In this document: positions 2,683-45,900 of the stretch, one piece after another | How positions within the stretch are numbered: position 1 is the first letter of the stretch | How the letters are laid out: the number at the start of each line of letters is the position of its first letter | Assembly: GCF_018977255.1 (NCBI RefSeq) | Contig: NW_024704742.1 | Coordinates: 124,560,001 to 124,624,000, forward strand | DNA: 64,000 bases | Reading direction: 5' to 3' | DNA from: Callorhinchus milii | Taxonomy: Eukaryota | The notes under the pieces: generated by a model | What the model saw: the letters and a program-made list of their open reading frames with translations, nothing else | Told to the model about the DNA's origin: nothing | Databases searched by the model: none | Program-made: the position numbers and the translations under genes

Positions 2683-3012
2683 AAAATAATCATTGTTGGA
2701 TTTGATAGAGTGCCTTATCACATCTTCAAGATGTCTCAAAGCGCTTCACAGAATATACTGTAAAGTGAATTGACTGTACACTTTGTGGGCGAAACGTGGC
2801 AGCCAATTGCACACAGCAGTGTCCCACAAATAGTCATGGATTGAGTGATCAAATTATTATTTTTTTAAGGAATAATTACCCCTGGAAAAGCGATCCACCA
2901 ATCAACTAACAACCTTGTTTCTACTTACTGCTAGGTAAACAGAGGCATGTGGAGTAAGGAAATTTGCCCAACATTTCGCCCTGCCAGGAATCGAACCCAG
3001 GTCTCTCGCTTG
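2683..3012 (-). mobile_element. tRNA-derived SINE family A
   Basis: Shared core gcgcttcacagaatatactgtaaagtgaattgactg and head ggaatcgaacccaggtctctcgc. Confidence 0.85.
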
Positions 3013-5277: not shown

Positions 5278-5500
5278 AGAGGTCTAAAATTAGTCTTAAG
5301 ACCATTGCCCTAAAATTTTAAATTGTACAGGATTTTGAATCTTAACTTGAAAGCTGTTTCTCTGACGTTCTTGAAAAAAATCTGTGGAAAACTGACTTCC
5401 AAATTAAGACTTGAAATTAAACATTTTCCAAAATACTGCACAATCTGAAATTTTATGTCATTGTCCTTAAGGTCTGGACCATGAGGCATTTCGGGTCTCT
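5278..5500. mobile_element. Old palindromic MITE-like element (related pieces near 2180-2300, 13245-13360, 18915-19050, 46830-46955)
   Basis: Arms taaaattttaaattgtacaggattttg and caaaatactgcacaatctgaaatttta are near reverse complements; shared core tcagtcttaa.ttgaa...ttttctg. Confidence 0.55.
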
Positions 5501-5699
5501 GGTGTCTTTGTCCACCAATGATCATTGTAGAATTAGTCGCTGAATACATAAATGAGAGAGAGGTTTTCATTCCATTGATTAAGGTTGGACCCAAATCCTA
5601 GAGACAGAAGAAAAACACGGGTATTTACTGTTCCCCAGCACTCAGACTGTTAAAAAGGTGCACGGCCACTGCATTGACCAAAATAAAATAATTACCAAC

Positions 5700-5816
5700 C
5701 CTCATTCCTTCCCAACGAGATATAGCTCGCAGAGGCCTCAAAGCACGTAATGTCCTGAGGGATCGCAGTGATTTGAAGGCTTGTATTCTGTTTCCTAACA
5801 TGCTGAGCCACCCTAT
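5700..5816 (-). CDS. Channel exon 19, DIII S4 ([39 protein letters not shown])
   Basis: [12 protein letters not shown] motif; tttctcttctag acceptor, AGG|gttggt donor; not in ORF track. Confidence 0.97.
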
Positions 5817-8800
5817 CTAGAAGAGAAAAACACAAAATAATGAAAATGATAGCAGAGTGCACAAATTAATTCCATGGGACGATTGGTAAGAAAACTGAAA
5901 TAACAGATGCCAAAGATGTGAAAAATAATTGGAAGTCTTGTTTCTAGTTGATAGTAAGTTGCAATGTGAATGCATGTTTTGCAAATACAATACTAGTCTG
6001 AAGTTCAAAATAACCCATCCGCAGCAAAAAAGAGTTTCCATTTGAACTTTTTGGATGTAAATGGGTAAAGCATTTAGAAATCATGTCCTACCTTTTAAAT
6101 ATACTTATGATATTTTTGAAATACAATAATAACCCTTGCATTTATAGAGAACCTCTCACATCAGGAAGAGGTCTTACAGTGCTTCACAGGATTTTAATGT
6201 AAAGTGTAGTGTCTTTGTATTTTGTTTTATTTTGTTTGTCTAAAAATCTGACCCCATCGGGTTTGAACTCGGTGCTACCAATTTCTGGAGAGTGTTGGGA
6301 GATTTTAAAACAATGGGGTGAAAAATAAAGTTAGGATCAGTTACAATAACACTACATACCCAATTTTTCACCCCAATGTTTGAAAAAAAATTCTCTTTGA
6401 TGAAGCAAAAGGGCATCAATATTGTTGGGTAATGTGATCTATTGCCATCAATGTGGTACAGTGCTGGGTCTGAGCAATATTGTTCCAAAGATGTGATTAC
6501 TGTAGGCTGTCTCTACTTAACAACTGCTTTTATGCACCACTATTCTATCCATTTGATTGCAAAACTATTTTTATACTGTGAAGTCTTAGTTATCCATCGT
6601 TACGCGTATCTGTTACTGTGAAAAAAACAGAAGGCGTGAAGCGTAAAAAACAAATTTAGAGATCTTCAATTTTTCTGGGTAAGATCTGTGAATGTTAATC
6701 TTTTTTTCTCTTGATATTTGGTTAGGTACGATAAATTCAAAAAGGAAGTTTGGACCACTGAATGTAGCATCATGCATTGGTGTAACTGGGTCACTTTATA
6801 AGAAGCTTTCCACTTTGTTACACACAGGGGAACATTGAGTGAAGGAGAGGCATTTTTTATGTGATCTGGAATTTACCTTCCAGATACCATGTAAATCTCC
6901 TGGAAGATGGTTTTGGCAACCCTGACAGAAGCTAGAAAAGAGGTTGCCTTTCTTAACTGTGGGCATGTCCTGTGCTTGTTTTGTTGGGTGGGAGGGAGGA
7001 CGGAGATACAAGAGAGTAGAAGGAAATAATTTGAAGATGGAGAAAATTTTTTATCAAAAGTGAAACGCCAAAAAAGTCAATATTATTAAAGAAATGTTAT
7101 TCAAATTATGATCACCAGGTAACAGATGAGTCACAATGTGATATGATACTCAATCAATAAGCTTATCTGGTTGAATAATGTAGAAGATGTAAGCATTTCA
7201 TATCTTTGGTTTCTCACGTTGTTTAAATGTGATATTGTATCAGGACCTACCCAGATGACAATCTATTTATAATGTTATTTGTAAAGATTTAAAAAAAAGA
7301 ATCCTCTATATAGAAATACATTATGGTCCAACCTTATGTTTATTTGATGCTTCAAGCCTGTGTGCTATAATTTTGTGCAGTAATTTGTTCAGTTTATTGT
7401 CAATTCCAGGCTGGTTCCCATATTTCTTTTCAAATAGCTTCTACTATTTCTCGAGTTTGGTAGTTTTACATTTTATTTTCACATTTTTAAATTGACATAA
7501 ATGTCTCAGGATTGACATAATTGTATTAATATTTATTCTTGTTTTAAACTCAAATTTGATTCCTGAGGAGAGTGCCAGGAAAAGTGAAACTTGATCAAAA
7601 GGTATCACGGCTTGTGACAGTGAAACATATAGACTGGTGTACAAATGTCAGCACAATGTGATTAGTGCATGGCTCTGAAGACCTGTACAAAGAGGTGTAG
7701 ATTATATTTCTATGTCACATAAAGGTAAAGTACTAATCCTAATAGTATAAACAATTAAAAGTACAGTCATCACTTTCTACTGATTAGTTTCAGGAAGTGA
7801 GGAAAATCTCTTTATGTTCAGCCAACGGTTAAGAATGCTGCCTTTACAAAACTATAATACATATAAAATAAACAGCCTCATTCCTGTCAGTATGGTGGTG
7901 CAGTACGTTAGTTGGGGTACTGAATTGCTGTGCCAATGCACCGCAAAATGTTGTGGCAATAGAGAGATTGCTACTGTGTCCTCCCACATTGTGAATACCT
8001 GACCTTGCTTGGGTCATTAGAGGGAGATCAGGCCTTCCTCCACAGGGAGGGAAAAACTAATCATCAACTCTTGACTGCCATTCGCCTCTAAATGATTGGA
8101 AACAAGTTCCATGTCCGCTCACTCTCTAATCTGGGGAAGAGTGTGAAATGCTTGGGGCCAAAGGAGGGGCAAAAATAGGTAAAACAAGAGAGGGGAGGCT
8201 GCAAAGAATTAAGTAATTAAAGAAGAAAAATGCTCTCATGGAGGATGTTCTTGATCAAAATAATTTCACTGGACTTCACAATAGTTCAGTTTACACAGAG
8301 TTAAACATCTGTCTTGAATGAGACAGTGCACTGTTGTGGCTATACTGCTGATCCACAAAATGTATATCAGGTGCTTCCTAGGACAATTTGCTACTTCAAA
8401 CAGATCTTACACAGTTTACATCTGCTAATAAATACATTACCCTGTAAGTACTGAATAAATTCCCTTCAACCAAGCAACCAGCACCTGAACTCTGTTATTT
8501 TGAAATGGTTCACATGTGCACGAGCTGAACGTTCTAAGCTTAAGAAACATGATCTAAGTAGTTACACTTGGAGTAAAAAGAAATGATCTGTAACATCCGT
8601 GAAAAGGTAAGCATCTTTAATATTACTCTCTGAAAAACGTTACGCCAAAATAAAAAAGCATGTACTCACCACAACAAGAAAAAAATCCAGTAATGTCCAG
8701 ACGTTTGTGAAATAATTTGTTAGGCCGAGACCTAATACCTTAAAAACCATTTCCATGTTGAAAAAGACAGTATAAAAATAATCCAGATTTTGCAGTGCTA

Positions 8801-11800
8801 ACTGGATCTTCACATTAGTGCGGGAATACTTATCATCTAAGGTCTAGAAGAGAGAAAAAAAAATTAAGCAATCCGCAACATTACGCCAACTTTGTGACCA
8901 TCATATTTTTCACATAAATGCGGGTCCAATTTTTACATTTCTTCTTTTGTACACTGACTTGGAATATGTTATATACCTGGTCCTTGGTTTGGCAACCTTG
9001 TTCAAAAAAAACTTCATTGCCTTAAAGAAATAATTGCATTAAAAATTGATCCAACAACAATTTACATTTATGTAGGGCCTTTTGTGTCGGAAAGATGTCT
9101 CAATGTGCAATATTTCATTAAAAGATTAAATGGATGATCCAAGTTGAATTCTGCTTAGAGATGAGCTTGGGTCAATTTTGTGTATTTCTTAATGCAATTT
9201 CTAAGTTAAGAAATCCAGATGTCTGGAACTCATGGCAACAGTGATGAGTACAATTTGATCTATTTTTGGAGCTGGGTTCTCTCAAGTCGGCGTGGTTATC
9301 TCATAAAGTCTCCAATTAAGAAATCCCATTAAGAAACGTAGCAAATTTGATCACAAGACTTGAATTTCAGTCTGAACATTCAGGCTTCCAATGAATGGCA
9401 AATTTCATCATTTACTGGGGAAACAGAGGATATTATAAATCAAAAATGAGTAAAATATTTCATAAGGAGAAATGCAACATTGGAATGGATTAGAAGGGAA
9501 AAGAACATTTGACAAGTTTTTTCATTGGAATGGATTAGAAGGGAAAAGGACACTTGACAAGTTTTTTCCAAACTATTTGCAAACAAAAACATTTTAGTTG
9601 GGCTATGTGCTCCTTAGAAGCAGTGCAATGCAAGAAATGGAGCAGTGCACATCTTCCAACTGTGGCCTGTGATTTGCTTTCCTTTTGGCAGGATTGATAA
9701 AAGCATCACCCGGTGCAACAATAAGTCATTCAGACCAGATGGTTGTAGGTTTGATATGTGTTCTGTGCTGAGTTGGCTGATCTCAACTGGGCCAACAGAT
9801 GCAGCTCTACAACTGGCCTCAATGCCTTTGAGCTAAGAAAAAGGAGGAACTCAAATTGTGTTCCTGCTTTTTATTACTATCGACTGTCCTCCGCTGCCCA
9901 TTAAGAACAAGTTCAGCTCTCTACAGTCTCCACAGTCAAATCTATGTCAGCCTGGCTCAGTTGGTAGCACTCTTGCCTCTGATTTAGAATGTTGTGGGTT
10001 TAAGACCTACATCAGGACTTTGAACTCATAATAATCCAAGCTGATAATAATAATCCAATGCAGTCCCGGGGATGTATTGTATTATTGGAGATGTCGTTCT
10101 TCACATGAGTTGTTAAAACTGAGGTCATGTCTGCCTCAGGTGAATGTTAAAGATCGCATGACTCTACTTGAAAAGTGAAGGGAGTTTCTCTCCGTGTCCT
10201 GGTCAACATTTATTTCATGGCTGTTTGTGAGACATTGCTGGATGCAAATGAGCTGCCCCATTTGTCTTCAAATACACAGTCCTCCATGGTAAATCCTGTG
10301 AAGAGCTATGGGACATCCTCTCAACAGGAAAAGTGCTATATCAAATGCAAGGATTATTATTGTATTATTATTAATAACAGTGATAATTATTATAATAACC
10401 CTTGGAACATTCAATTTTCAATTTGCACGTGACAACTAGCGTGAGTTACTGAAAGACTGCTGGTTCGTATGCAAATTGCAGCCCAGCAAGAGTTAGTGCT
10501 TTCATGAGTGGAGGAGGGAAACAAAGAGCATACATAGAGTTTGTATACAATATGCTCATTGATTCAGCCGTGAATCCGCTGACAATACCAACATGATACC
10601 CATCTTTGATGTGGGTCCAGCTCAAATCAACATTGATTGCACACGTATCATTTGATTTCTATCATGAAACATAGGTCACATTGAGTCTCATCTTAGATGT
10701 AATTCTACTCGCAAACACCACTATAAATGAGGTGCAGTTGATTTGAGTTGCCACCAACGATGCCTCACTAACTATAAAACTACTGCACCTCAGGGTACCT
10801 AGCACAAAAAATGTGCGAGATTGTGGCTGAAAGAAGCAAGACGGCACAGATATTAAAAGAATTTATGGCTGCAATAATTTTTTAATTGAAATTTCTGTTA
10901 CTCAGCTTCAAAGCATTAATGGAGTTCTGATATGTATTGAAAGAAGTTTGGACAAGAATGACTGTATCTTACGCATTATAACAAATCAGACCTTCAAATT
11001 ATAGTGCAAGGAGTTGAATTCTGTCTCTTTGTCTTAGGGGCTGAACTCCGTTTGTGACTGGGATTTACGGGGGCCAAATAATGGAGAACTCATTGACATA
11101 TAAAGAAAAAGTCAAGTGTTTTAATTACTCACTGTTTGATCTGGAGTGAAGTCATGCATTCACACCCACATGCATTCTGCAGTCATTTTACTTTTTTCTG
11201 TTACTACTAATAATAATCCTTGTATTTCATATAGCAGCTTATTACGTTGTTGAGACGTTTCAAAGCGCTTCACAGAATATATTGCAAAGTAGATTGACTG
11301 CATATTTTGTGGACGAAATAATAAATTTACAATGAGATGGTTTAATGTGTCCTAACTCCAAAAGAGTGCAATAGAGAGACTACGACAATTCTCTATGTGA
11401 TGAATTGCCAACCTAAGCTGCACTCTGAGAGCCTATGAGAAGCAGTGGCCAGTGGTTGTCACATTGAAAGGAAGGACAAATTGGAAGGAGTGCTCTGTGG
11501 TCACTCCAAATGGCTGATAGTTACTGGCTATGTGATAACAATAGTCAACAACAACAATAACTTGTATTTATATAGTACACTACAAGCAGGGTAGCATCTC
11601 AGAGCACTTGGTCAATAACAATAATAATAATAATCCTTGCATTTGATAGAGCTGGGAGCAGGTTGCCTGTCCTCCAGCCACCCTAGGGCTCTGTAAAGAT
11701 TCTTACAAGTTACAGCACAGAAGGAGGCCATTTGTCTCACTGAGTCCAGGTCAGTCTCCATTCCAAGGAGAGGTTTGGATGAAGAAGGTCCCTCATCCCA

Positions 11801-14800
11801 ATTGATTTCACCCATCCACAATATTAAGCTCTGTGAGATGCTGGCACCTGTGAAGGGCGCTATATAAATGCAAGTGGCTGTTGTCACCGGTCGGGCCTTC
11901 AGCTTCTCTGCCCCACCCTTTGGAGCTCCATCCCCCAGTGCCTTTGTCTTACTCCCTTCCTTGCCTTCTTCAAAACATATCTCAAAACTCTCCAATTCGA
12001 CTGCACATTCGACCACCCTCCTACCAGTAACCTGCCCTCCAACCCCTGATCCCAACCCCCTGCTTGGGTCCAAATCTCTGACTGTCCAGTGCCTTAGGAC
12101 GTCCAAATGTAATTTATTGTGGTTGTTGTATTCATCCTACCACCACAGGATCATTTTTTTTAAAGAGTGTCCTGGCCTCAACCACCCTTGCTTATTACGT
12201 GCTCCAGTTGTTAATTACCCTGCAGGTAAAGAAATACTTCCTGGTGTCTGTCTTGAAATTGCCCTTTTTGCAACTCTCAACTCAATTCCTGTAGGTCCGC
12301 TATCTTGGTGCATCTAAAAGTATTGTTTTGAATTTGCTTTTGAATCCCATTTAAAATTGTATACAATTCTATCAGGTCCCCTCTGAGATGTCTCCTTTCA
12401 AGACTGAAGATCCCTATCTTATCTAATTGTTCTTTGAGGCTCATTCCTCTAACATTGGAGCTCAGCCTCACCTTTCTCCTCTTCACTGCCTTTAGGTCCG
12501 GGCAGAGACCTTATGTCACAGTGACAATGCAGTACTCTAAGTGCAGACTGTCCGTTCAGTATACTGTACAACTTGAGTATAACTTTTGGGATCTGGACAG
12601 AACTAATTTGGCAATATAGCTGAGCATCATGTCTGCCTTGTTTATTATTATTGTTAATTAAGTTGTTCATGTATTATTAATTCTGCTTCAACCATGGCTT
12701 TAATACGGGAGGCCTGGAAAAGGGAAATGAAGGAAAACGGATAGTTTTAAACTCATCAATACAGAATATTTTGTTTCTTTCTATTGGAATAATGAATTGC
12801 TTCTCAGACTGTTACTATTTTGTCCCCTGGTCGTACGTTGCCTGTTCCAGATTTACATAAGAACATAGGAATGTGCAGGACTGGTGCATCTGGACAGTTA
12901 AAAAAATCCTCTACTCAATCTCTCATAGCCTTCGGTAGATTTCTTCGCCAAATAGTTATCTAATTCCCTCGAATTTGTTGACAAAAACTGCCTCCATCAA
13001 TCTGCCTCCCTGGGTAATCCATTCCTCATATTCACCACTCTTTGTGCAAAGCAGATAGAGTTTAAATTGTTCACCACCCCTCTTCAGAGAGTTATGAGTC
13101 CACGCCATCTTTTTTTGCTAAACGTGTGAATACGATGAACATATTCATGAGCCAAAATTGCGGTATTCATCAATACATTATGGGGGAGAAATTCCACTTA
13201 GTCCTACATTTACTATTTTTATAAAGCAATTTAGTGCAGAACATGGTAAATTGTTGATTTCAGTCTTAACTATGAAACCAGTTTTCTGTGGTTCTTAAAA
13301 GGACTTCGGCCTCAAAATTAAGACTGTATTTACAAATTTGTCAAATTCTGGTCACTGAAATCCATATCTTTAAATTCAAATGGACATTCTCTCCATGTGT
13401 TCATTAAACAATTATAATTTGGTCACTCAACCACGACTGTTTGTGGGACACTGCTGTGCACAATTGGCTGCCGAGTTTTGCACACAAAATATCATCAATT
13501 CACTTTACAATATATTCTGTGAGGCGCTTTGAGACCGCTCGAAGACGTGAAAAGCGCTATGTCAAATGCAAGAATCATTATTATTAAAGAATGAAATTAA
13601 AATGCATTTTGAAATAAGAAATACAAATAATGCTTGATATAGTGCCTTATCATTTATTAAAACATCTCAAAGTGAGCGTGGTGACTTCATCTCATAGGTA
13701 AATGTAGCAACCGATATGTACGCAGCAATGTCTCACAGTCAGCAATGAAGTGATTGTCTTTTATCCTGGGGAGTTACTGGTCAGGACACTGGAGAAACTC
13801 CTATGCTGTTCTTTTCGAATACTTGCTAAATCTTTAACACTGAATCTAACAAGCCCACCTGAAGAGTCAGATAGAACCTTGGTTTAATGTCTCATTTGAA
13901 GGACAGCACCTGCAACAATACAAGCTCCACCAGTGCTGTAGTGGAGTGTCAGCCTAGACTATGAACTCAAAGTTTCGATGATGGGCTTGAATCCACAACC
14001 TTCTGACTCAGAGGCGAAAGTGCTGCTAACTGAGCCTGTCAGTTTATTGCACTCACTAGGGACCAGGGAGCAATGGAAAAGTTTGGGCCCATTCTAGAGC
14101 AAAGCAATAGCTAATGTTGGGAATAGTGTATTTGTTATTATATTGCTTCAGAATTAGGAGGAGGTTCAAGATTGACTGATAAATTGCAAATTAAAGTCAG
14201 ATTGTGGTGAGGGATAAAAATGGGTTGTACGGCAGGAAATTCAATTTAATTTCTAAAATAATATCAACATGTGTGTACACATCACTGGCACTTTCATTCA
14301 GATAAATACCATACAGTAATATAACAAAAACAACAACAATTTACATTTATATAGTTTCTTTCATATTGGAAGCACATCTCAAAGTGCTTCACACAGCTGA
14401 CTGGGAGCCTGAGCTGGGCAGAAGGTGGGGAGCTGAGGAGGGTAGGGAAGAGGGGGCTAAAGGTCACCAAAAGTGCAGTAAAAAAAAAGGTCTTGAGGCA
14501 GGCTTTAAAGGTGTAAAGCGGTGGGAGGGTGTTGACACAGCAATGTCCCGCAAACAGTCGTGGGACAATTTTTTTNAAGAGGTATTATTGTCCCCGGAAA
14601 GCGATCCACCAAATCGACTAACAACCAGATTCCTGCTAGGTAAACAGAGGTGTGTGGAGTAAGGAGACTTGCCTAAGGTTTTGCCCCATATATAAATCCA
14701 AGTTGTTGTGGTTATAAGTGTTGGAGACAACAAAGGCTTTTGTTTGAACATATTACTTACCAGTGTTACTGTGCTGAGAAGTATAACAAAAAGGACGGCT

Positions 14801-17800
14801 GCATCAAACACACGATTATTCACCACTGTGAACATTAGATTCCTCACTGCCAGAAACACCTTTCCCACGAATGTTGCAGTAAGTGCATCACAACAGTTGC
14901 ACTTTTCAGTGCAAATAACTGGGAAGCAGGGGTCCATGATTTTGTTTTTGTTAATTTTCTCCTCGTTTGCTTCATCTTCAATCGATATGACGTCTTTATC
15001 ATCCTTTATTTTGTTACTTTCACTGCAAGGTTCTCTGTTCACACATTTTGATGTCTGTGGGTTGTTTTTTCCTTGGGTTTCTGTTTCCATTTCCTGCTGC
15101 ACTTCCTCCAAAGTCTCCAGCTAAGGTAAGAATGGAATTACAAATTACACCACCTCATGGCATAGACTAATTGGGCGAAATGTTTCTGTGCTGTATCATT
15201 CTACGTAATTCTATATGTAGTTCTATCTCAGATATATAAAGAAACAATCTCTAAATTATTGGATCAGGTCACAAACCAACTCTTCCAAAATGCTAATCTG
15301 AGTAATAAGATGTGAGCCACTTATCTCCTTATTCAGAAAGTGATCTGGTTTACAATGTGAATGGAACACCTTTCCATTCCAAGCACCCAATGTCAGCATT
15401 ACGGACTCCTAGGGCCAGGTTTAGCAGTGCTTTAGGGTTAAGTTCCTTCTTATCTGCTGCACAATTTAGTCTAATTTGTGACAGTTTCAAACCAGTTGAG
15501 TTAAAGTATTTGTTAAATTGCACCTTCTGGTTTGTGAATATGTGAATTATTCGTACCAGTCTATATCAGTAACTACTAAGATGATAATAATCCTTGCATT
15601 TGATATAATGCCTTATCACGTGTTTGAGACGTCTCAAAGCGCTTCACAAAATATCCTGTAAAGTGAGTTGATTGTATGTTTCTCAATGGTTTGAAATAAA
15701 TCAAAATATTAATTTAAACAAAGGTCACCATAAAATTATACTCTATATCCTTATACTAGATATTTTTCATGTGATTTTATATTACCATCACAACAGCTGA
15801 TCCATTTTCATACTTCCGGCCACCTCCTGCTGGATCACAAAGCGCACTAACAGTAGGGACTTCACCCTTAACCTTCCCTATCGGAGGGAGTACATGGCCA
15901 TGGGAAAATGTTGGCAAAGCTGTTGGTTCAACAGTGCTTGAAGATTTTACCTCATCATTTGCATCTACGAAAAAAAGCAAGCAAACAAGGAAAGTTTTAA
16001 ATGATACAAAACTACACACAGAGGCTATGTTTGCTATGGAAGATTGGCAAAGCTCTGTACATTGTTAAATTCATAACTGAATTTTAATAATTTCCATTCT
16101 GTGAGAACTTTTACCAATGAAATATGATTCTATTTAAAGTAGCAATGGACTACTACTGTACTAATACCAGATAAATATCAGTAGAGGGATGTATGTACTA
16201 TGCTATCTGATACAAATATTAGACATTTATTCATATTGAAGGGTCAATAGGTAAGACAACTTGCACTGATGATGCTCCATTGTAATGCTCCAGCGTCCAC
16301 ATTATCCTTAAGTTTACAAGAATCTTTGATAGTCTCAGTACTGTTTCAGTGAATGCTGAGTCAAAACAATGATTGAGGGAATTGGGGTAACAAAGTGCAT
16401 TGCAGAAACGATGTGGTGTGTTGTGAAATAGTTGGATCCAGATTTGTGTCTGAAAATCCCCACATACTGAGTCCCCAATGCCAGAGAATCATCAAGTGTG
16501 GTCTTGATAATTCTCTGGCATTGGAAAGACAACCTGCATGTCTCCAGACAGAGGGAGGAAACAACTGAAGTAGATGCTTCCAATGGTCACACAGAGGGCT
16601 TAGGTGGGTTGCAAAAGACATCTGTTTTCCTGGTAGGTACAGTGAATCTGCCTGAGAAATCTACAGACTGATTTTTATTTTTGTTGTTAAGATGATCAAA
16701 GGATATGCTAATGTTTTGTGCTGCAGGGATATCTCCAGGGGCTCTTCAAAGTTTAGGATACTTTAGGAAACCTTACTGATTTAAAACTTGAGTACTCAAA
16801 TACTCATTTTACAATGAACAAATGTACATAACAAAAATCAGAATCTTTCTATTACCCCAAGGAAACTGATCAAAATTTAAAACAGCAGAATCTATTTGTG
16901 TCAACGTGATAAAACACTGATATATGAAACGATGCTCTTACTGGTAGTACATTTCGGTGGACCTGTACTGCAATCTGCAAGAGGTGCATTGCCTGCATCT
17001 GAGGAGTTATTTTTATCCTCTGGCTGTATTTTGCCCGAAAATGGTATCTGTGATTTTCGACATGTCAATACAAGTAAAACATTCTTAAACATTTGTTTCA
17101 TTTCAGAGGGTTCTTCGTCCGTTGCATTTGCTGTCAGTGTATCTCCAGAAAAAAAATTAAGCAGCAAAGCCAAGAACAAGTTTAACACCTGAAGAATAAA
17201 AAGTATACAGGACATGTTAAATACATTGCTACACTATCTACTATAATAATAATAATAATAATCATTTCATTTGATACAGTGCCTTATGATGTATTTGAGT
17301 TGTCTCAAAACACTTCACAGAATATACTGTAAAGTGAATTAACTGTATAGTTTGTGGGTGAAATGCTGCAGCCAATTACACACAACAATGTTCCAAAACG
17401 ATCGTGGATTGAGTGACCAAATTATTATTATGATTTTTTTTGAAGAGATTATTCCCCCAAAAAAGCGATCCGCCAATCGACCGACTATCGGGTTCCCTTT
17501 CCGGGTAAGGAAACTTGCCTAATATTTCGCCCTGCCCAGGAATCGAACCCAGGTCCTCTCGCTTGCGAGGCGAGTGTTCTAACCAATTTGCTACAGGACC
17601 CCACATTATTTGTATTCTACACATATGTGTGGTTCAAAAATAAGATTTTGAAACTATTATCAAAACAGAACATTTGGTGTTTGTTTTTGTCAGCTAGATG
17701 TCTGATTCATATGTAGTTTCGATACCATTGAGCCAACTAACACACAATAAATTAAAAAAATCTACAGTTTATATCTATATTTAAAAAAACCATGTTTAGC

Positions 17801-20800
17801 GGATTGATACATTGTTGAAATAACTGCAATGCAACTTTTAGTTATAATTCAGGTTAAACTAAATATGATATTTTATCAGTTATATGGCACACACCATGCA
17901 TTAGTATTTCGCAGAATGTCTTACCAAAAAATTCCCAGCTATGTACGTGAGCAAGAACAACGGGACGCAAAAATACATCTTTGAGCAGCGCATACAGTCA
18001 TACAATGGTTCTATCCATTCACCACATAAGATCCGAAACACCATGATAAAGGAGTTGTAAAATCCTGTGAAATTCCACCTTGGTATTTCATTGCCAGAGA
18101 ATGCTTCCTATAATAACACAATGTCACGTGAAAACATGGGATAATAAAAGACAAAAAAGATGGAACTCAAGCATAGGAGGTTAAGGATCATATCTAATAC
18201 AGGTCGAAGTTTTCAAAATGACGAACGTTTTGATTAGTTAAATAAAGAGAGACTATTTCCACTGATGAGTCAGTAAGAAGACATAAATTGAATTTGATGG
18301 AAAATATCAAAGCATTTGTTTCATTAGCAACATTAAACATATATCACCAAATTATTTCATAAGGGTCATAAATTATTTCATAAGTCCTCCCCCTCCCCCT
18401 GACTCGGTCCCGGGATCCGTTACTGTGAAGCGCTCTGAGATGCCGTCTGGCGTTGAGGGCGCTGTATAAATCCAAGTTGTTGTTGTTGTTGTTATGGGAG
18501 GGGAGAGCAGGAGTTGTGGAGGGTGGGAGGGGAGAAATGGATAAACGACCAAATGTGGTTGAAAAGATAGATCTATAGGTGGGTTTCACAGGGGGGAAGG
18601 AGGGAATGAGCCCAAGGAACTCTCATCTAGAGGGACTGGGACCAAAGGTTAGATAATGGTTGGATCATTTACTGTAAAATGTGGATTTTTATAATGCACT
18701 TACTGCATGTGCATAATCATGTCCAACAAGCTGCATTCCGATTACAGTGAAAATATAAATAACAATGATAACTATAACTGTCAAATTTCCCATCTCTCTC
18801 ATCGATTTGAATATAATGGTGATCAGTATGTTCAGCGTTCTCCAGTTCTTTGCCAGTTTGAAGACTCTAAGCTGTTTACAAAGAGAAAGAAAACATTCAG
18901 AATAATGTGAATTTTGAGAGGCTCCTGAGGACCGAAATTATTCATCATCTTAAATTCAGGCAACCGTCTTAAAATTTAAGATTGTGTAGAATTTAAGAAA
19001 ATCTTTGATTAGTCTTAATTTGAAAGTCAATTTTCTGCAGTTCTTCATACGGACACTGACAACTCAGTAACTTAGTAAAGTAACACTGCCAACTCAGTGA
19101 TATATTTGATGTTGATCACATTGAATGTATCCAGTTGTGCCATAACCAGATTCCCTGACATCATTCTCACTGGTGATCTCAATCAACTTGAATCATTGTC
19201 TTTATGTATGACAGAAGTCAGCTGGCAGTTAAAGAGGTGCCGGTAACATAACTTCAGAGTAACTATTATCTTGCTAACCCCCAGCTTTGCTAGTGCTGTC
19301 ACTGAGAACAGTGCCAGAGGTGCATCTCCAGCAAATCCATGTACATGCAGTGTGCCAAACTAATGTGCTGCTAATTTATCCCCAATAAGGAATAAATTAA
19401 GCAGCACATTGAGGGCGACAGGACCTAATTGTCAGATTGCTGGATGTAACAAGCTTCATACTGAGATTTGGTTCTATGTTTTCCAAGACCCCTTTTTCCA
19501 TAGCAATATTGGGGGTATTTTTAAAGTAACAAAAAATCCTCTTGAAGCTAGTCTGTTATTAATGCTTTATATTAATGGCATTAACTTTCTGAAGTGGAAT
19601 CTCCCTCGCATTCCTCCACCCACCCACCACCCCGTTCCAATTTATGATCAAGACAACTTGGTAGAAGCAACACAGCACTGATTTTATTAACTTAAGCAAA
19701 TGAATGACAAAAATGAAAAGCACAGCATTTGATTTAATACTCAGGTTGCAAAAATGTATCCTTTATAAATTTTTTAAACTTCAAATTTTGTGTAAAGTGC
19801 TGTTTGTGCTTTTGCCAGATACTGTATTTAACTTTCAGCCTTGTTCCCAGGTCACGCTGTCCTCAACTTTATCAAAAATCAACCCACAATGACTTTAGAA
19901 TGCAACCAAACATTGTTCTTGGCATTTTGAGTTGATTTTCTCACTGATATGTATCAATATAATTCAGAATATCAGAACAGGAGGAAGCCATTCAGGTAGT
20001 CAAGCCTGTTTATTAGCTCACAGCAGATTTTTAAATCCAATTCCCCACCTTTCCAAATCACTTTTAGTACCCCTTACTTCCTAAATGACTATCTTTCTCT
20101 ATTAAACGTCTTCACTGATTCTGCAGAGATCTAGTTAGACAGAGTTGGCACAGTTATACAGTAATTTCACAATGAGAGAATGACTTTGATACATTGCATG
20201 CCTCTTAATTCAGGGGGACATGGATTTAAAATTAGAACTAAAATCAGATAGCTAAAACTGAGGTCAGGAAGCATTTCTTCTCTCAGAGGATTGTGAAAAT
20301 GTGGAATGTTTTGCCTCAGAAAACTGTAGAGGTTAAATCCATAGGCATGTTTATAAGCAAGTTAAACAGATAGTAGAGGCATTCAGGGATTATGGCAGGG
20401 ATATATCTGTCCCAATCTAATAAACTGATGAAACTGAATGGCCTCCTCCTTTTCCTCTTTTCTAAAAGGAAGCTCTGAAGTCACAAGCACCATTTTGACT
20501 AGAAAATTGGAGTTTACTGAAACACTTGCTGCAAATGAGCCCATTTTCCTGCATGTTCAGAATACTGTACAGAACTTGCTTCAGACACATATGCTATTCT
20601 GAATTAAAACAATGATCCTATATAGAATTATACAGAATGATATGATACAGAACAGGCTATTTAGCCCAACTAGTCTGTGCTGTCATTGTACTCCATTTGA
20701 GCCTCCATCCATTCCCTTCTCCTTTACACCTTATTCCCTCTCCCTCATATATACACTCCTTGGGATCCCTCTGGGATGCACCCAATACAGCTAAATATTT

Positions 20801-32800: not shown

Positions 32801-33875
32801 CAACCTGGGGAAGGGGTGGACATTGCCAACTGTTTCCTCATTGAAATAATGGAAGTTCTTGCTGTAATATAAGATGTTAAGATTACATTTGGGCTGGTAC
32901 CTCAGGTGCTAACAGCATCACTCTACATGAATGCACATTCCTCATGGAGCTAGTGCAGAACCTCAGTGCCTTGTTCAGCTCTCAACTATCCTTTCAATTT
33001 CACATTCATGCTTTGACCCATTCAGCTTTCCCTGCCACTGCAACATTGCCCATCTCCACCACTACCACTCCCCTAGGGCCACCGTGACCCTTATCCATGC
33101 TTTTATTATGTCCAGGTTTGGCTATGCTAACTCTCTTTAACGGACTTCTCAACTCTTCTCTCCACGAACTGCAGACCATTCAGAACTTTGCAGCTCATGT
33201 TCTCTCCCAAACTAGGCTTCATGAGTCTATCATCCCTATCCTTGCCTGGCTTCACTAGCAACTCATGCCTCTGAGATTGAGTTCAAGATCCTCGTCCTCA
33301 CTTTTCAATCCCTCAATACACACCCTATATCTGTGATCTTTTAAAACCTTATCAACCTGCTTACTCCCTCCACTGAGAAAGCACTGACCTGCTTCACATC
33401 TCCACCATCAGTGGTTGGGCTTTCAGCCTTCCTGCCCCACTCTCTGGAACTCTTGTCCCTTCGCCTCACCCCTTCCCTCACCTACTTCAAGGTCCATCTG
33501 AAGACCTTCCTCTTCAACATCTTCAGTCATCTTCCTACCCCCACCCTCTTGGCGTCTACCTCTTCAGAATACATCCCCCAGCTCTGGTGCAAACCTTCAG
33601 TTGTCCAGCACCTTGGGACTTACTCCCATCATGAAAGGTGCTATATAAATCCAATTTGTTGTTACTGTTGTTATTGTTCTTCATGTACATCATCAGATGG
33701 AATGCCTGCATTTCCTACACTTACAAAAAGCCAATGGTGGCAATAATATTGTCACTTTCTTTCCATTTTTCTGAAAATGGAACTTCTACAAAGTGTTATT
33801 CAATTACTTCCACAAAATGGTTCACAACCTTTTAGCAATATTAAGAGAGAGGGAAGGTCCTGCCATATTAACAGC

Positions 33876-33937
<62 letters not shown>

Positions 33938-36900
33938 CCTTGCACTTGATATAGTGCTTTTCACGTCGGGAGGACGTCCCAAAGTGCTTCACAGAACACA
34001 CTGTAAAGTGAATTGACTGTATATTTGTGGGCGAATGCGGCAGCCAATTACGCACAGCAATGTCCCACAAACAGTCGTAGATTGAAAATGACCAATTAAT
34101 TATTGTTTTTGGTTTTGGAGGGATTATTATTAGGTGTGTGGAGTAAGGAAACTTGCCCAAGGTTTCGTCCTGCCTGGAATTGAACTCAGGTCTCTCGCTT
34201 GCAAAGCGAGTGCTCTAACCACTGAGCTACAGGATTCCAAATAGCTACAGCATATTAATTGATAACAATGAATAATTTTATTTCTTACCTTGTGAAATAT
34301 ACATCTACTTCCTTTAGCATAATTGGTAGGCTTTAATAATCATCACAATTTTTAAAAATAATAATCTCGCTTGATAGCTTATAGCTCCCAAAGTCTATGT
34401 ATTGGTCACAAAATACTCACCCAGTGCCTGTTCCATTTCCACAAACCATAGTGTCAACATCTTTAGTCACCAGCCAGTTAGCTGTGAAATAGACAAGGTA
34501 GATTTTTATAAAAAGGACAATGTAAAAATATTCTGCTTACAGCATTTTATTTTCAGAAAAATAAATGGATCTTGATTTTTGTTAAGTAACTGTTTCCCTG
34601 ATTTACACTTCACATAACTATGACATTGGTCAACTTTTGATAAGCAGAATTGGTAATGGCATCACCCATTGCTCCTCAGAAAGTTTGAGCTTTGAAATTC
34701 TAGCCTGTGCTGACGTCAACCTGCAGTAGTTGCAGTAGTGCTGCCACAATTGGCCTCACCGCCCAGCTTAGATAGACAGGGTTCTCACTTCTAATTGATA
34801 TCAGCGCTCTCCCTCCTCCGCTCCCCCACCGTGTTGACGTTGTATACAGACAGGATCAATGTGGCCTGATATATCCAATAACAACAACAAATTACATTTG
34901 TATAGTGCTTTTCACGTCAGGAAGACGTCCCAAGGTGCTGGACAATCAGGGATCCGCACCAGAGCTGGTTGTTGGGATCAGGAGGGATGGAGGGAGGGGA
35001 GGGGATCATATCCCTATGATTGAATAGCCCACAACACTCATTAAGTACTGGATGTCATATGTAGAGTCACTGCCTTCAGGGGAGAGAAATTTGCAACAAT
35101 AGATATCTAGTGTTGCCCAATTATGTAACATAATAAAATTATCCTACAGTAATGGTTAATAAATAGGGATGTATCTAATGAATTAGGATAACAACCCATC
35201 TGCAACATTTGCAGGTTGGGTTAAAACCACGTGCAAGTGAATATGCACAGAGGAAATTATAGGTGCCTTTTGATTATAAAAATAGCAAACAATGCGAAGG
35301 ATCCCATGAGATTCTTTAAATTGTACATTGGTTAATTACATAATAATGGGCACTTATAATTTCTTGGATTACCTAATTTGCAAATTTTTCACATGGGTTG
35401 TTGACCCAAACTGGGAAATTAAAATTGCAATACAAAATGCACTTACTTTGGTTTTGAATATAAGTGTACCATTCTTCATCAGTAATATTAATCCCATTTG
35501 CTAGATTTTTAATGCACTTGTGTTTCAACACGCCTTTGAAAATCTGAAGACCAAACAATGCAATGATCAATAGGACAAACAGCATGAGAAGGAGAACCTC
35601 CATCAGCAGCCTGGCAGACTTGAATATAGCACCAATGATGGTCTTTAGCCCTGTAGAAACAGAGAAATACATTTCACACTTACAGTGAACAAAGTTCAGG
35701 AAAGGGATGTCATGTTTTTATCATCCAAATAATAATAGACCCTAAATTATAGGCATTGAATTAACCATCTTCAGTACTTCTGAGCTGTTAATACATATTT
35801 GCATATCATGGCTATACTCACTATTAATTAACTGTCAGTATCATAATTCATTTTAATGGAAAATTGGTTGAAATGATTTAGCTTTTGCACTATCATTGGA
35901 AATAAACCACTGATCTCTGGTGAAAAGGTGTGACTAAAAGAAGACATTTTTTACTGAGACTTAATTGTATGTTCCAACACCAATACCAAATTACATTTGC
36001 ATAGCGTCTTTCATGTCGGGAGGACGTCCCAAGGCATTCCAATGAAAAATACATAGCACAGGAAGAATCTGCTAAGAAATCTCCTATTTTACATTTTATA
36101 CTATCTTAATCGTAGAATTTTTAAAAATAACCTTTTTCATATTAAATTCATTTGACTTCCATTTTCATTGATTCTTGTGGGACATTGCTGGTAGAGATGG
36201 CCTCCATTTTTGCGAATATAACCCATTCTATATTAAACAAAGTGATACAATAATGTTTATAATTATATAATGCCTTTCACGTGAGGAGGAAGTCGTAAGG
36301 CTTACTCACGTGGCTGGGCATAAAAGCAGGGTGGGGGTCAGGGTGTGAGCTGAATAATAATAATAATAATCCTTACATTTGATATAGCGCTTTTCACGTC
36401 GGGAGGACGGGGAAAGAGGGAGGAGGGAGGTGGGAAAGATGACTGAAAGCATGGTCAAGGAGGTAAATCATTAAACACGAGTTTCGTATGTATAATTTTT
36501 TATTTCCACATCATTGTTCCTCTTTTTGATTGAGCCCTTTAATTTAGATTTGGTCTGCTTTGCTGTTCCCATGAAAGTTAAAGAACACTTTTTCTCCACC
36601 CCCTTCCTCTCCCTTCCTCCTCCCACCCCATCCACCCACCCACATCCAACACTATTTCAAACAAATATTTCTCCCAGTTATTCTGTTTCACGTTCCCTTC
36701 TCATCCAAATTCACTCCCAAATGCAAATTAGTTGTCTATTCATATTGTTGTTTGATGTATGTTGACGTAGATTGATTGCTATATTTGCCTGCATGATATT
36801 TGCTTAATTTCCAATGAATCTCTTTTTATAATGCGCTTTGAGGTATTTTCTTTTATGTGAGCAGTTCTACATGCTGGACACAAGAATTCAGAGATATTAA

Positions 36901-39900: not shown

Positions 39901-42900
39901 TAAAACCTTGTGGGGGAGTAAAGAGTCAAAATCTTTAGTTACAACTCAGATATAAGTTGAACTCAGACTTTTTTGATATCACTAGATTAATAAAAACACC
40001 AACACCCAAGCACATTTTAACAAAACTTGCTCAATGCCAACTTCCACATGCAGTATAATGAACGGTGTCCAGGATGTGTACCAAGTTAAAGGATAAATGC
40101 TCTTATTAGTTTTATGGTATTCAGCATTACGTATATTTTTTATTCCTACAAACATCAATTAAGAAATCATCATACTGTATATGAAAAAAATTCAGTTGAA
40201 TTGTCATTGTCAGGGGCCTGATGTATGCTCATAGCTAAAATTAGCAATCTTTTCAGCTAAATCTTTACAATGGCAAATGTCATTATAAAGCCTACAAGAA
40301 ATACCTTTTTTTGTGCCTACAAGAAATGTCACCGTTATGCTGCTAAAATAAACGCTGTTATGTGCAATGCTACACACAGTGGATAAAAAAAGCAGCAGTT
40401 CTGCAACAGGTTTTATTAGCAGTGACTCAGTCGAGTGATGGGAAATTGTGCAGACAACTGGCCTAAGTCATGATCGAATCATGGGATCCTTGTTCTGAAA
40501 TCCCAGGGGTACTTTGTGGAGTGGGTTGCCTACAGAATTCCCTGTTAGCAACTTGGAGTGAATCATATTAGTGACTCCCTTGCAAACTGCTACTTTTTCA
40601 ATCCCAGTGTTGGCATATTCTCACCAGGTAAAATAGCAATCATCTTTAGAGCTCGAAATGCTCTTAATGCAGATAGTCCGGGAATTTGAGGAAATGCCAG
40701 TGTCAGATACCTGCAAAAGATTTTTTAAAATTATTATGAGTTACAGTAAGAATCCTCTCTGATTTTTTCCAGTGGGCATGATTAACCCTCAGTTAGATAA
40801 TGTGGTATAATTTGTGGCAGTTTCTAACAGGATTTCTTAATCAGGAAAATGGACCCTCCAATATGGTGCTGGGGGAAGCCCATTACATTATGGAGATGCT
40901 GTCCTTCAGGTGAAACTTCAGACCAGATCCCGTCTACCTGTTAAGATGGATGTTAAAGATCCCATGAAAATGCTACTTGAAAAGGTAGTAGAGTTTCTTG
41001 CACTGTGCACAAAATTAGCTGTTGAATTTGCCTACAAAATGTAATCACTTCACTTTGCAGTTAGTCCCGTGAAGTGCTTTGAGATGGTCTTCAGACACAA
41101 AACGTGCTCTCTCAAATGCAAGGATTTTTTTATTATTTATATTATAGGACAGTGACGTGAGAGCTCTGCATTGTCATAGATGTCATCCGTTAGGTAAAAT
41201 ATTGAACTGAGGTTGAATCTGGCTGTTCGTGTGGACCTTAAAGATCCCATGGCACAATTTAAAAACAGAAGGGAGCTTCTCCTGGTGTTCTGGCTAAAAA
41301 ACCCTAAATAAATAAATTGGTCATGACTTTTTGTGGGACATTTATTGTTTGTGACATTAATCATGTTCGATCGCTTCGTTAAACCTTCACACATCAATTA
41401 AAAAACGAACAGAACAGACAAGAAAGAGCAGGAAAGTGAGACTTACGCCAATAGGATTACAGTGAAGTCCAACCAGTTCCAGGCATTCCGGAGGTAAGAA
41501 AATGTATGTAGAGCAAAGCCTCGGGCAAGCACCTTAATAATTACTTCAACCGTATATATAAATGTAAAGAGGTAACTAAAACGGAGATAAAGACAGCATT
41601 CAGACAATGTAAACATTAAATCAAGCATTACAATTCACCAGAAGCTGATATTTCTGATGCAGTTCACAATTAACAACAGTGTGTAAAAAAAATATTATTT
41701 TTGCAATCCAATTGCAATCTTTACAGTTAAGACTGAATCCAACAATTTGCCAAATTCTGGATGCTCTGAAATGGTACATTAATAGATTACATTTAGATCC
41801 AGGTGAAACTTCTCCCTAATGGAGGATTAGGGAGATAATTTCAATAAGATCCTCTCTGAGCTTTCTCTTTTCCAGTGTAGGGAAATCTCAGAGGGATATT
41901 TACTCCTTTAAACTGTAGCTTCTGATGAAGGGTCATGGACCCGAAACTTTGACTCACTTTCCTTTCTCCATAGTTGCTGCCTGACCTGCTGAGTCTTCCC
42001 AGTGAGTTCTGTTTTTGATATGGTTTATAAATACTGTTGTAAAAAGAGCGGCCTTTCAGTACAGGATGCACAGACCAGATTAAATAGAGGGGTATCATGG
42101 CACATCACTACATGCCATGAAGCGTTTGTGACATGTAAATATCAGGTTACTATAATGCAACCTGTCTTCTTGCTTTCATTATAAGAAATAAACACCTGAT
42201 CCATGGCTGGCAGCAAGTTTCAAGGGAGCAATACAACTGAGTGATTCATCAACAACATCAGATTACATTTGGATAGTGCCTTTCATTTCGGGCGGACGTC
42301 CCAAGGCGCTGGACAGTCAAGGATTTGATCCGAGCTGGGGGTTGGGATCAGGAGGGGTGGAGGGCCAGGAGGGTGAGGTCAGGGGGGGAACCGATTGTTA
42401 AAATTCAGATTGTTATACATTATGCAAGTGAAGTGAGAATCCCCTGCAGACACTGATGATCCAATGACGCCTCTCACTTCACAAGCACAAATGCCGAATT
42501 ATAACTTTACATTTTTTCCTTTTAGTTATGTAAAATTCATTTTTCAAAAGTAACATGTCATTTACTTTATTAATCATTAACTACTGGAGATACTGAGTAT
42601 GGTAGAGGAAGGATAAATAAAGGATATTAATGATTCAACCTAGAAGAAACCTTATATACTATCATAAATATCATAAATATTTTCTTCTTTTAAAAGAATG
42701 TAAGAAAATACTATATATAATATATTTAATAATACTGTATACAAATAAAAGGAAACATGTAATGCAATACATATTAAGTATACTTACTCTATAAAATAAA
42801 GATTTGTATTTAACGCCAGTAGTAACATATTCACAAAGATTGTTCCAATGATCACTAAATTGAAAATTGTAAAGACCTATTAAGGAAAATGAGGATTACA

Positions 42901-45900
42901 AAGTTCATTTTATAAGTGTGTATATTATACAGTATTGGGCACTTGCTGTATTAAAATGAAACCAGCTCAATGACTTGGAGTAATTTATATGCTAGCAATT
43001 GTTATCTTTATTTTATTTTCTAGGGCAAATGCTTGATAGTCTTAAAATGATCTATTCCTAGAAACATTGTGACACCAATGAGGGTCTATTTAACAGGATT
43101 ATTGTGGTACTAGGGGCAATAATGTTAATTTTTGTTGTACTTCATCAGAACACTCAATTTCCAGCCTCCAACTTTGAATACTTAATAACATAAAAATGAG
43201 GAAACATCTTTCACCCCTATTCAACTCACTCCATTGTCCAGATATTGTTTGGGACTAACCTCAGCTGGAGATAGAACCAATTTAATTTTACTATTGAAGA
43301 GAACTTAAATATTTGAAAGAAAGGTTTGTATTTTGCAACGGCACAGCTGTCAACACATTAATATTACTGGATTGCTTCTCAGCAACAAAGCAGTACACCA
43401 GAAAGCAGTTCAACTTATTAGAGTTTGATGGTTAACTGTTATTCAACTTCAACTTACTTTTATGGCAAGTCTGTGATAAAGCGCATGACAACATGTATGA
43501 CACCAGCACTTCAGAAACAGTTTTTTCAAATTACGCAACTTATAAGTTACAAACTCATTTTGTCAAAAGGAAGGATAACAAACCGTTTCGACTAAAAAGG
43601 ATATTGATGTGTCATTGCACGAACTGTAATTTTCCTCACTGGATGAGTGTGAGCAAACAAAAAGAGAGACTTGCTGGTGTTGAAGCGAAACAAATACTGG
43701 GCACTAAATCTTGTGGATATCACACAGTAGGTCTGAAAAACAATGTATAATATTAGAGGAAACATCATCAGTTACCTAGCAAGTTAGCATTAGATATAGG
43801 AGAGTAGATGGCAGGCTGGCCGTGGGTTACAAGTTAGGAATTCAAGTGAATGTTACAGTAAGCTGTTTACAGAACACCAAATGATTGAATTACTTTTTTC
43901 AATTCACGACCAGACATTTTGAACACTGTAAAATAAACACCATTGTTTTAATAAAACTGTCATGCAGCAAGTGTTTAAATATGTTGGAGTGATGGACACA
44001 ATTGAAAGATAATTACGTTGGAATTTAAGGTTTATGGCAATGACATAGTATTACAGCTCTTCGGTTTCTGTGCCACAATATATTAGCAGTCACTTTGCCT
44101 ATGAATTCCTGAGGAAATGTGTTGCAACACATATTATGAAATTTAGGCATTTTACTCAAATTGAAATGGCTGAATTTATTTTGATTTTTTTTCTATTGTC
44201 ACCTTTCACACAATGTGTACTGAACCATCTCCGCACGCACATACAACTGAATCCAGCTTCCCTCTTCACATGGCTTATTGCTGCTGAGAATGAAGTGGCT
44301 TTGCACCTGGTAGTATAATTGCAGCATAAAGAGTTATGATAATTTCAAAAGTTCTTTGGTGGTTCATTTGATCAAATTAGGTGGTTTCTTTCTGCTTTTC
44401 ATGCAGTTACAATGTGGCTACATATATTGCAGGACACCCTTAGGAGGGGATGTCCTGATAGTTTAATTGGAAACCTTATATGTCATTAATTTGATAGGCG
44501 TCCACTGATAGGTAGCAATCTCATCTCTGGATCATGAAGCTTGTGGACTGAAGCCCCACATTGAGACTGGGACTTATAGGTTCAACTGACACCTTAGTGC
44601 CCAGCGTTGAAGGTGTCATCCTTTAGACAACATGGTAAACTGAGGACTATTTGCCTGCATTCATTTGGACAGTAAAGAAGCTATGCGTTGACACTACTGA
44701 AACACAGAAGAGAATTTCCCCTGATATCCTGTCCAAGTTTCCTTACTCCTCATGTCTCTCTTTACCTAACAGCAAGTAGGAACCCAGTTGTTAGTGATTC
44801 GCAGATCGCTTTCCGGGGTAATAATCCCGAAAAGAAAATGCCGTCACTCAATCCACGACTGTTTGTGGGACATTGCTGTGCACAATTGGCTGTCATGTTT
44901 CACCCACAAATTACACAATCCACCCACTTTACAATATATCCTGTGAAGCACTTTGATACGTCTCAACAACATGACAAGGCGCTAAATCAAATGCAAAGAT
45001 TATTATTATAAAGAAAAGTGAGCCTATCACCCCCATACCCCAGTGGATTAAATTCAATTATTCTCATTTTAAATGTCTGGATGGTGTCAATCCATCCTAT
45101 CTCTCAGACCTCCTGCAACTCTACTGTCCTGGCTGTCCTCTCTGATCAATGAACACCTTCGTATCCTCTGCCTAATCTACCCCACCATGGATGGTTGAGC
45201 ATTCAAGAAATTTGCTCCCACTCTCTGGAATTCTACCTTCATCCTGCCTTTCCTTCTTCACCTTCAAAACCTGCCTTAAGATCTACCTTTTCAATTACAC
45301 TTTCAGCTTCCTCCTCCATCCCTACAAATTCACATTCCCAGCTATATAAATATGTTTTAATTGTAAAACATCTCAAAGTACGTCACAGATAATTGCTGTA
45401 AAGTGAGGTGACTAGGTATTTGTAGGTGAATGCAACAGCTAATTTGTACACAGCATGAAGTGAATAACCAATATATCTGAGGGAATATTGGCCCCTTTTT
45501 TCAAATAGTATTGTGGGATCTTTTACATCTACCTGAATAGGCAGATAGGACCATCTAATTTGAAAAATGACACCTCCAATATTGCAGCACTCCTCCAGCA
45601 CTGCACTTGAGTACCACTGTACACTTTGAAAGTCGATCTCACAAGGTTTCCCACATTAATGTTGAAAGAGACTGGCTCACATAGCTGCCATGCTCAGGGC
45701 ATCAGGGGAGATGTAGGCCAATTGCAAGCCATTATGGGCGTCCACATTTTGCTCACACAGCCCAGCTGCTTCTCATGCTCACAGATAAGGTTTTTTTCTG
45801 TTGTGTAGATCTTCGGACTTATCGAAATCCAAAAGTAGATTCTCTGCCTACAAAGGTTTGAACTGACAACATTCTGATACAGAAGTGAGAGTGCTTGTAA

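Follow-up and report, generated by a model that had tools for sequence, protein, structure and literature searches.

An intact Nav2 channel gene in Callorhinchus milii and a tentative link to lateral-line electroreceptors

Identity and intactness of the gene

The 64,000-nucleotide (nt) stretch of DNA analysed here (hereafter the window; Callorhinchus milii, NCBI RefSeq assembly GCF_018977255.1, contig NW_024704742.1, positions 124,560,001 to 124,624,000 of the forward strand) holds exons 1-19 of a gene for a Nav2-type voltage-gated cation channel, and this gene is intact and spliced. With flanks of 80 kb on the left and 40 kb on the right added from the same genome, and with shark, coelacanth and lamprey proteins as guides for exon finding, the complete model comprises 25 exons on the minus strand, running from window position 55956 to G000:C1:124538526 (5,190 nt, 1,729 amino acids). 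Exons 20-25, which lie to the left of the window, complete the filter as D380, E721, E1206 and A1502 in domains I to IV (DI to DIV), that is, DEEA; the first-pass annotation of the window, to which only the first two residues were visible, had named DEEA as typical of the Nav2 clade, and the pore exons read next to the window do supply Glu in DIII and Ala in DIV.

Nav2 channels are defined by a filter without Lys in DII or DIII (DEEA, DEES, DEEG or DEET; PMC6259924, which, like the other papers cited here, is drawn upon in excerpt). The C. milii protein has Nav2-type pore motifs and charged S4 helices in all four domains, a C-terminal IQ motif and, on the public protein model P0007, four Pfam Ion_trans stretches. 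It lacks the features of vertebrate Nav1, having no DEKA filter, no Ile-Phe-Met (IFM) latch and no ankyrin-binding motif, the pattern for which matches 3 of 3 Nav1 controls and 0 of 5 Nav2 sequences. All four motifs quoted in the first-pass annotation were recovered on the minus strand (at 43672, 28692, 18038 and 5729); one of them, the DI filter motif, does not serve as a Nav2 signature by itself, given that solved Nav1.5 chains also carry it. Taken together, it is likely that the locus encodes a functional vertebrate Nav2 that would operate as a Ca2+-permeable channel.

The joined-exon translation contains a single, terminal stop and no frameshift across the 25 exons, and none of 2,000 random concatenations of matched lengths was free of stops. 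The earlier statement that all exons are open with good splice sites therefore stands for the reading frame and for 23 of the 24 introns, which are GT-AG, and needs amending for intron 2, which is AT-AC with the minor-spliceosome donor ATATCCTTT; the downstream exons 20-25 are present and undisrupted, in keeping with the view that this is not an obvious pseudogene. Splicing is demonstrated in one of four sequencing runs aligned onto window 14600-29000. In this run, X1, contig 1 (1,430 nt) has pieces on exons 12, 14, 15, 16 and 17 and leaves 169 nt unassigned at the place of exon 13 (168 nt). Contig 2 (597 nt) matches exons 11 and 9, and the 118 nt between these two pieces equal exon 10 in length. 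Over the same region, runs X2 and X3 show intron coverage as in DNA. A pseudogene was rejected on the strength of the open frame, the ordered splice sites and the spliced transcript in X1. Among 12 sequencing-run rows the last exon was matched in 5, none of them on record as RNA, and the six rows guessed to be RNA gave no match, which is to be read as a blank and not as evidence. Contig 1 of X1 continues 110 nt beyond the exon 17 donor (window 14651-14760), as partly spliced RNA or an alternative end would.

The public model P0007, named SCN4Aa-like, begins in an intronic stretch (window 44205-44309), is without exons 1-3 and skips the DII pore exon 14. The DII pore segment is also missing in models of Heptranchias, Pristis, Hemitrygon, Hypanus and Huso. 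Exon 14 has 183 nt in phase 0-0, so that skipping it keeps the frame; the P0007 form was rejected as the sole form of the transcript, exon 14 being included in X1 contig 1.

Phylogenetic position relative to Nav1

The last exon is 98-100% identical to ten C. milii records, which are named SCN9A-like, SCN4Aa-like or plain sodium channel; databases hide vertebrate Nav2 beneath Nav1 names. The C. milii genome contains one exact last-exon locus and five others at 38-60% identity on other contigs, four of which have a Nav1-type DIV motif. From 60 aligned proteins, 35 were used for a quick LG+G4 tree and 19 for a careful mixture-model tree, and in both the gene falls, with a support of 100, into a vertebrate clade that lies with invertebrate Nav2 and not with Nav1 (100/100). 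The sampling includes one partial invertebrate Nav1 and no Cav outgroup, the stem branch is long (0.65-0.81), and the trees do not resolve the position inside Nav2. The proposal that a Nav2-clade gene resides in a vertebrate genome is thus upheld on both counts, the gene grouping with other vertebrate orthologues. Approximately unbiased (AU) tests, run under LG+G4 without the mixture model, reject a placement with vertebrate Nav1 of the whole clade (p 0.0044), of the axolotl protein (p 1e-100) and of bichir plus sturgeon (p 1.6e-5). In the vertebrate-Nav2 class, all 39 readable proteins have Glu as the DIII filter residue; in the Nav1 class, 98 of 101 have Lys.

Identity across the transmembrane domains is 85-90% to horn shark, 64-74% to bichir and 53-68% to lamprey, and across the same comparisons that of the II-III linker falls to 22-57%. 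Per domain, the protein is 46-49% identical to Nav1 and 47-55% to invertebrate Nav2 (about 49-55% to the fly protein). With insect DSC1/NaCP60E, cockroach BSC1 and honeybee CaV4 it shares the DEEA filter, the Nav2 pore motifs and the IQ motif; it differs from insect Nav2 in its latch (TLL versus MFL), in having three rather than four basic residues in DI S4 and in the replacement of a DIV pore Gly by Ala in cartilaginous fishes. Compared with vertebrate Nav1.x (SCN1A-SCN11A), the four-domain architecture is shared, whereas the DIII Glu in place of Lys, the lack of IFM and ankyrin-binding motifs and the separate clade set the C. milii gene apart. The ESM Atlas returned only general Nav/Cav clusters.

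A divergent vertebrate Nav1 paralogue with a regained DIII Glu would suit the SCN4A-, SCN9A-, SCN8A- or SCN1A-like names of public records, and identity to Nav1 is only slightly under that to invertebrate Nav2. The trees and the AU test, by which this candidate was rejected, the pore motifs in four domains, the missing ankyrin motif and the existence of five separate Nav1-like last-exon loci on other contigs make it extremely improbable.

The presence of Nav2 in C. milii is already published. Citing Zakon et al. 2017, Fux et al. 2018 (PMC6259924) describe one Nav2 gene each in the Australian ghostshark, the coelacanth and lampreys, and therefore the finding as given is known; reviews citing Zakon et al. 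2017 also bear out the mention, in the first-pass annotation, of Nav2 reports from early-diverging vertebrates. The gene described here is the same as that of Zakon et al. 2017 (lamprey AUY61917, elephant shark, coelacanth), with a last exon 98-100% identical, and it falls in one clade with the lamprey record named Nav2; the lamprey orthologue P0036 is deposited as 'sodium channel Nav2'.

Distribution across vertebrates

Three homologue searches, of which the best 120, 120 and 105 matches were listed, yielded 343 proteins, and among these matches 53 scored best against vertebrate Nav2 references. Named orthologues come from at least 28 species: 13 cartilaginous fishes, the coelacanth, 2 bichirs, 5 sturgeons and paddlefish, 4 lampreys and 3 salamanders, the unnamed near-ties P0309, P0329, P0330 and P0333 being left out of this count. 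Where the full filter is readable it is DEEA in ten jawed species, including Polypterus, Erpetoichthys and Acipenser ruthenus, and DEEG in three lampreys. No Nav2-class match from teleosts, frogs or amniotes is among the matches listed, though their Nav1 proteins appear there; gars, bowfin, hagfish, lungfish and caecilians have no protein at all among them, their presence in the database being unchecked. A profile search of 50%-identity representatives gave no further vertebrate Nav2 lineage in its best 150 and, since relatives above 50% identity are collapsed, cannot show absence; it added seven near-tie candidates, and the five looked up were from Hydra, a diplonemid and three unnamed matches at 27-28%. 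Sterlet and beluga have two Nav2 copies each (P0029, P0345, P0033, P0347) on different large contigs, which probably stem from the sturgeon genome duplication.

Compared with Zakon et al. 2017 as cited in reviews, orthologues are thus also found in bichirs, sturgeons (two copies), paddlefish and salamanders. Nav2 is said to be missing from ray-finned fishes and tetrapods (PMC6259924), a 2023 review has bony vertebrates without it (PMC10120453) and a 2025 paper has it lost in zebrafish (PMC12021243). The stated loss in ray-finned fishes and tetrapods looks too broad and would shift to neopterygians, frogs and amniotes. In the literature searched, which included few subscription papers, no paper was found on Nav2 in bichirs, sturgeons or salamanders, or on a link between Nav2 and electroreceptors.

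All six Nav2-bearing groups are electroreceptive (in part PMC5429088). Neopterygians, anurans and amniotes have lost electroreception, and hagfish do not have it (PMC5429088). The spread of Nav2 resembles that of the vertebrates that keep ancestral electric-field sensing, though lungfish and caecilians, likewise electroreceptive, do not figure among the matches listed.

Voltage sensor, latch and predicted gating

In 24 of 26 vertebrate Nav2 species, Leu or Val takes the position equivalent to the Phe of IFM; in C. milii this is Leu1276, within TLL, in the III-IV linker exon region. Among motif matches, by contrast, those of the invertebrate-Nav2-like class have Phe at this position in 44 of 48 cases and those of the Nav1 class in 94 of 95. 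The xFL latch, which is usual in arthropods but does not define Nav2, is not found in the C. milii gene. DI S4 has three basic residues, compared with four in the invertebrate Nav2 and Nav1 rows, and all 13 readable rows, from lamprey to sturgeon, share the same 14-mer there; the acidic filter residues are invariant wherever readable (29 rows).

Expressed Nav2 channels gate slowly and pass both Ca2+ and Na+ (PMC6259924), and honeybee CaV4 needs its MFL for inactivation, which the change of MFL to AAA abolishes (PMC10983803). By analogy with characterised invertebrate orthologues, it is very probable that depolarisation would open a slowly gating pore that would pass Ca2+ as well as or better than Na+. 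With Leu or Val in place of the latch Phe, fast inactivation would, somewhat more speculatively, be less pronounced than that of insect Nav2; we lean toward this prediction from the protein sequence, and the weakened inactivation would then give a sustained inward Ca2+/Na+ current. Several points tell against it. The latch stays hydrophobic with Leu, and inactivation may therefore persist; Leu also occupies the latch of a Nav2-like protein from Hydra; two elasmobranch models have Phe there, within a linker of different sequence that could be a modelling patch; and no recording of a vertebrate Nav2 was found in the literature searched.

The long stem branch, the lost latch Phe and the missing DI S4 charge are also what a decaying remnant or a non-conducting protein might display, as might the many partial public models, six of which are without the DII pore segment, and the salamander orthologues, whose 5' halves were not found among the matches listed. 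Such decay is nevertheless quite unlikely in view of 25 exons without stop or frameshift, the invariant acidic filter residues, the 13 of 13 identical DI S4 14-mers and the DII pore exon in spliced RNA of X1.

Three further substitutions were observed in the orthologues. Next to the DI filter Asp, on its C-terminal side, bichirs have Arg and sturgeons His (P0027, P0030, P0029, P0033), and the other vertebrate orthologues Tyr or Phe; this aromatic site is a toxin-contact site in Nav1. In the salamander orthologues P0043, P0044 and P0124, which have a long branch, Leu replaces one DIV S4 Arg; an AlphaFold model of a salamander half-channel (predicted local distance difference test score 45.6) was discarded. 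Finally, the Gly after the DIV filter Ala has become Ala in 13 of 13 cartilaginous fishes (the C. milii last exon, G000:C1:124538532, and 12 sharks and rays).

A possible role in lateral-line organs and electroreceptors

A review places vertebrate Nav2 expression only outside the nervous system, with the tissues unnamed in the text drawn upon (PMC6259924). In the Siberian sturgeon, a transcript named NACP60E is among the lateral-line-organ-enriched genes (PMC7720607, Table S1), with log2 values over epithelium of 3.57 in ampullary organs (about 12-fold) and 2.63 in neuromasts (about 6-fold); no other name of a voltage-gated sodium channel, and no SCN-named row, was found in the excerpted Table S1. 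The likeliest single site of Nav2 action would, tentatively, be sensory epithelium of non-neuronal type in the lateral line, chiefly the ampullary electroreceptors; there a sustained Nav2 current would act alongside Cav1.3. The latter is a possible functional analogue, providing sustained voltage-gated Ca2+ entry, and both Cav1.3 and NACP60E are enriched in sturgeon lateral-line organs; Cav1.3 belongs to another family, however, and its role is established whereas that of Nav2 is hypothetical.

A number of observations weigh against this placement. The neuromast minus ampullary difference of NACP60E is -0.94 (false discovery rate 0.027) and the transcript is classed as common to both organs (PMC7720607). 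KCNA5 (log2 3.66 ampullary, 3.03 neuromast) and KCNAB3 are in the same class (PMC7720607) and are ampullary-only by in situ hybridisation in paddlefish (PMC5429088); therefore, the 'common' label is compatible with ampullary specificity. NACP60E is also just one of 2,074 enriched genes, named via its best database hit (PMC7720607), and is a putative Nav2 orthologue by name; the ampullary samples also contain olfactory (OMP), lens, neuronal and liver transcripts (PMC7720607). No voltage-gated sodium channel entry is in the paddlefish lateral-line-enriched list, and the excerpted text of the catshark paper has no mention of Nav2. Finally, no orthologue from the electroreceptive lungfish and caecilians is among the matches listed, and the salamander models cover the linker, DIII, DIV and tail only (the 3' half), one of them with an unrelated inserted stretch.

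The same channel could instead serve a different tissue outside the nervous system (ciliated epithelium, gill, gonad or sperm, skin); its match with electroreception would then reflect slow-evolving genomes that retain old genes. The Nav2-retaining lineages are largely slow-evolving, which speaks for this alternative, as do the unnamed non-nervous tissues of the review, a sturgeon 'common' gene set rich in cilium genes (in the excerpted data) and the lack of lungfish or caecilian matches among those listed. On the other hand, slow-evolving gars and bowfin gave no match among those listed and long-branch salamanders did, and the excerpted sturgeon data show enrichment over general epithelium in both lateral-line organs, so that another tissue is possible and yet doubtful. 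Less likely still is an olfactory or chemosensory role, as for fly DSC1, knock-downs of which smell poorly (PMC6259924), with the sturgeon ampullary signal as olfactory carry-over: OMP shows strong ampullary enrichment (log2 -3.8 for neuromast versus ampullary samples, in the excerpted data), but NACP60E, unlike OMP, differs about 2-fold between the organs and is about 6-fold enriched in neuromasts, and loss in teleosts, frogs and amniotes would be left unexplained.

An electroreceptor or lateral-line role of Nav2 is accordingly put forward as a testable hypothesis to which we give limited credence. Still conjecturally, Nav2 might be an overlooked part of the ancestral lateral-line electroreceptor, a Ca2+-permeable channel whose fast-inactivation latch disappeared in the vertebrate ancestor. 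The gene would have survived in lampreys, cartilaginous fishes, bichirs, sturgeons, coelacanth and salamanders, whereas hagfish, neopterygians, frogs and amniotes would have lost it together with ampullary electroreception. There is now a candidate tissue for vertebrate Nav2 and a predicted change in its gating, and sturgeon, catshark and axolotl are tractable animals for its study; the job of Nav2, as well as which channels build electroreceptors, become directly testable questions.

Gene structure, neighbours and repeats

All features of the gene are on the minus strand. Exon 1, with the start codon and N-terminus (55627..55956), was located by tblastn with lamprey P0037 (E 2e-8), and is in frame with a GT donor; the N-terminal region of the protein aligns with lamprey Nav2 at 52/170 identities (pairwise E 1e-27 over the first 160 residues). 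Exon 2 starts at 43732 and exon 19 ends at 5700, exactly the limits given in the first-pass annotation, whose range leaves exon 1 outside. Exon 2 (43605..43732, DI pre-S1 region; quoted motif and protein-guided model) is followed by the AT-AC intron 2 (42869..43604), with a branch-point-like CCTTAAT close to its 3' end, which we assign to the U12-type from the consensus. SCN genes likewise have an AT-AC intron near the 5' end. The protein-guided model further gives, in DI, exon 3 (42788..42868, S1), exon 4 (41447..41575, S2-S3), exon 6 (35447..35650, S5 and turret) and exon 7 (34421..34481, turret); exon 5 (40625..40710, S4 with its three basic residues) rests on the joined model and alignment, and exon 8 (28651..28795, pore loop, Asp380 codon at 28677) on the quoted motif and model.

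From exon 9 (26924..27112, DI S6; in the spliced contig 2) to exon 17, the model is accompanied by X1 contigs: exon 10 (25853..25970, I-II linker) by the 118-nt unlisted middle of contig 2, exons 11 (24101..24348, DII S1) and 12 (21774..21959, DII S2-S4) by contig pieces, exon 13 (18704..18871, DII S4-S5) by the fitting length in contig 1, and exon 14 (17925..18107, DII pore loop, Glu721 codon at 18020) by its presence in contig 1. Contig pieces likewise cover exon 15 (16942..17188, DII S6 and II-III linker), exon 16 (15786..15964, II-III linker) and exon 17 (14761..15120, II-III linker and DIII S1, without ankyrin-binding motif). Exon 18 (8670..8843, DIII S2-S3) is from the protein-guided model and exon 19 (5700..5816, DIII S4) from the quoted motif and model; the gene leaves the window at its left edge within intron 19 (1..5699). 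Exons 20-25, from G000:C1:124557854 down to 124538526, encode the DIII pore Glu1206, the III-IV linker, the DIV Ala1502, the IQ motif and the stop. The only N of the window, at 14576, lies inside intron 17 and leaves the coding sequence untouched.

The gene sits between MOCS2 (MoaE match, G000:C1:124630648, plus strand) and follistatin (FST, locus L006, minus strand), followed by NDUFS4. On human chromosome 5, MOCS2, FST and NDUFS4 stand in the same order, and no channel is known between them. The MOCS2-FST position provides an address for testing Nav2 loss in other genomes.

Fragments of long interspersed nuclear element (LINE) type with Pfam reverse transcriptase matches lie at window 62291-62854 (minus strand) and at L014:3609-4880, L014:6995-8581 and L007:1094-1594; window 3259-3606, which has no such Pfam match, is taken as LINE-type by resemblance only. 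A short interspersed repeat at window 2680-3000 is abundant, recurring in many other intronic places; when 40 of 5,925 candidates were scored, at least 39 further copies were found at 85-88% identity.

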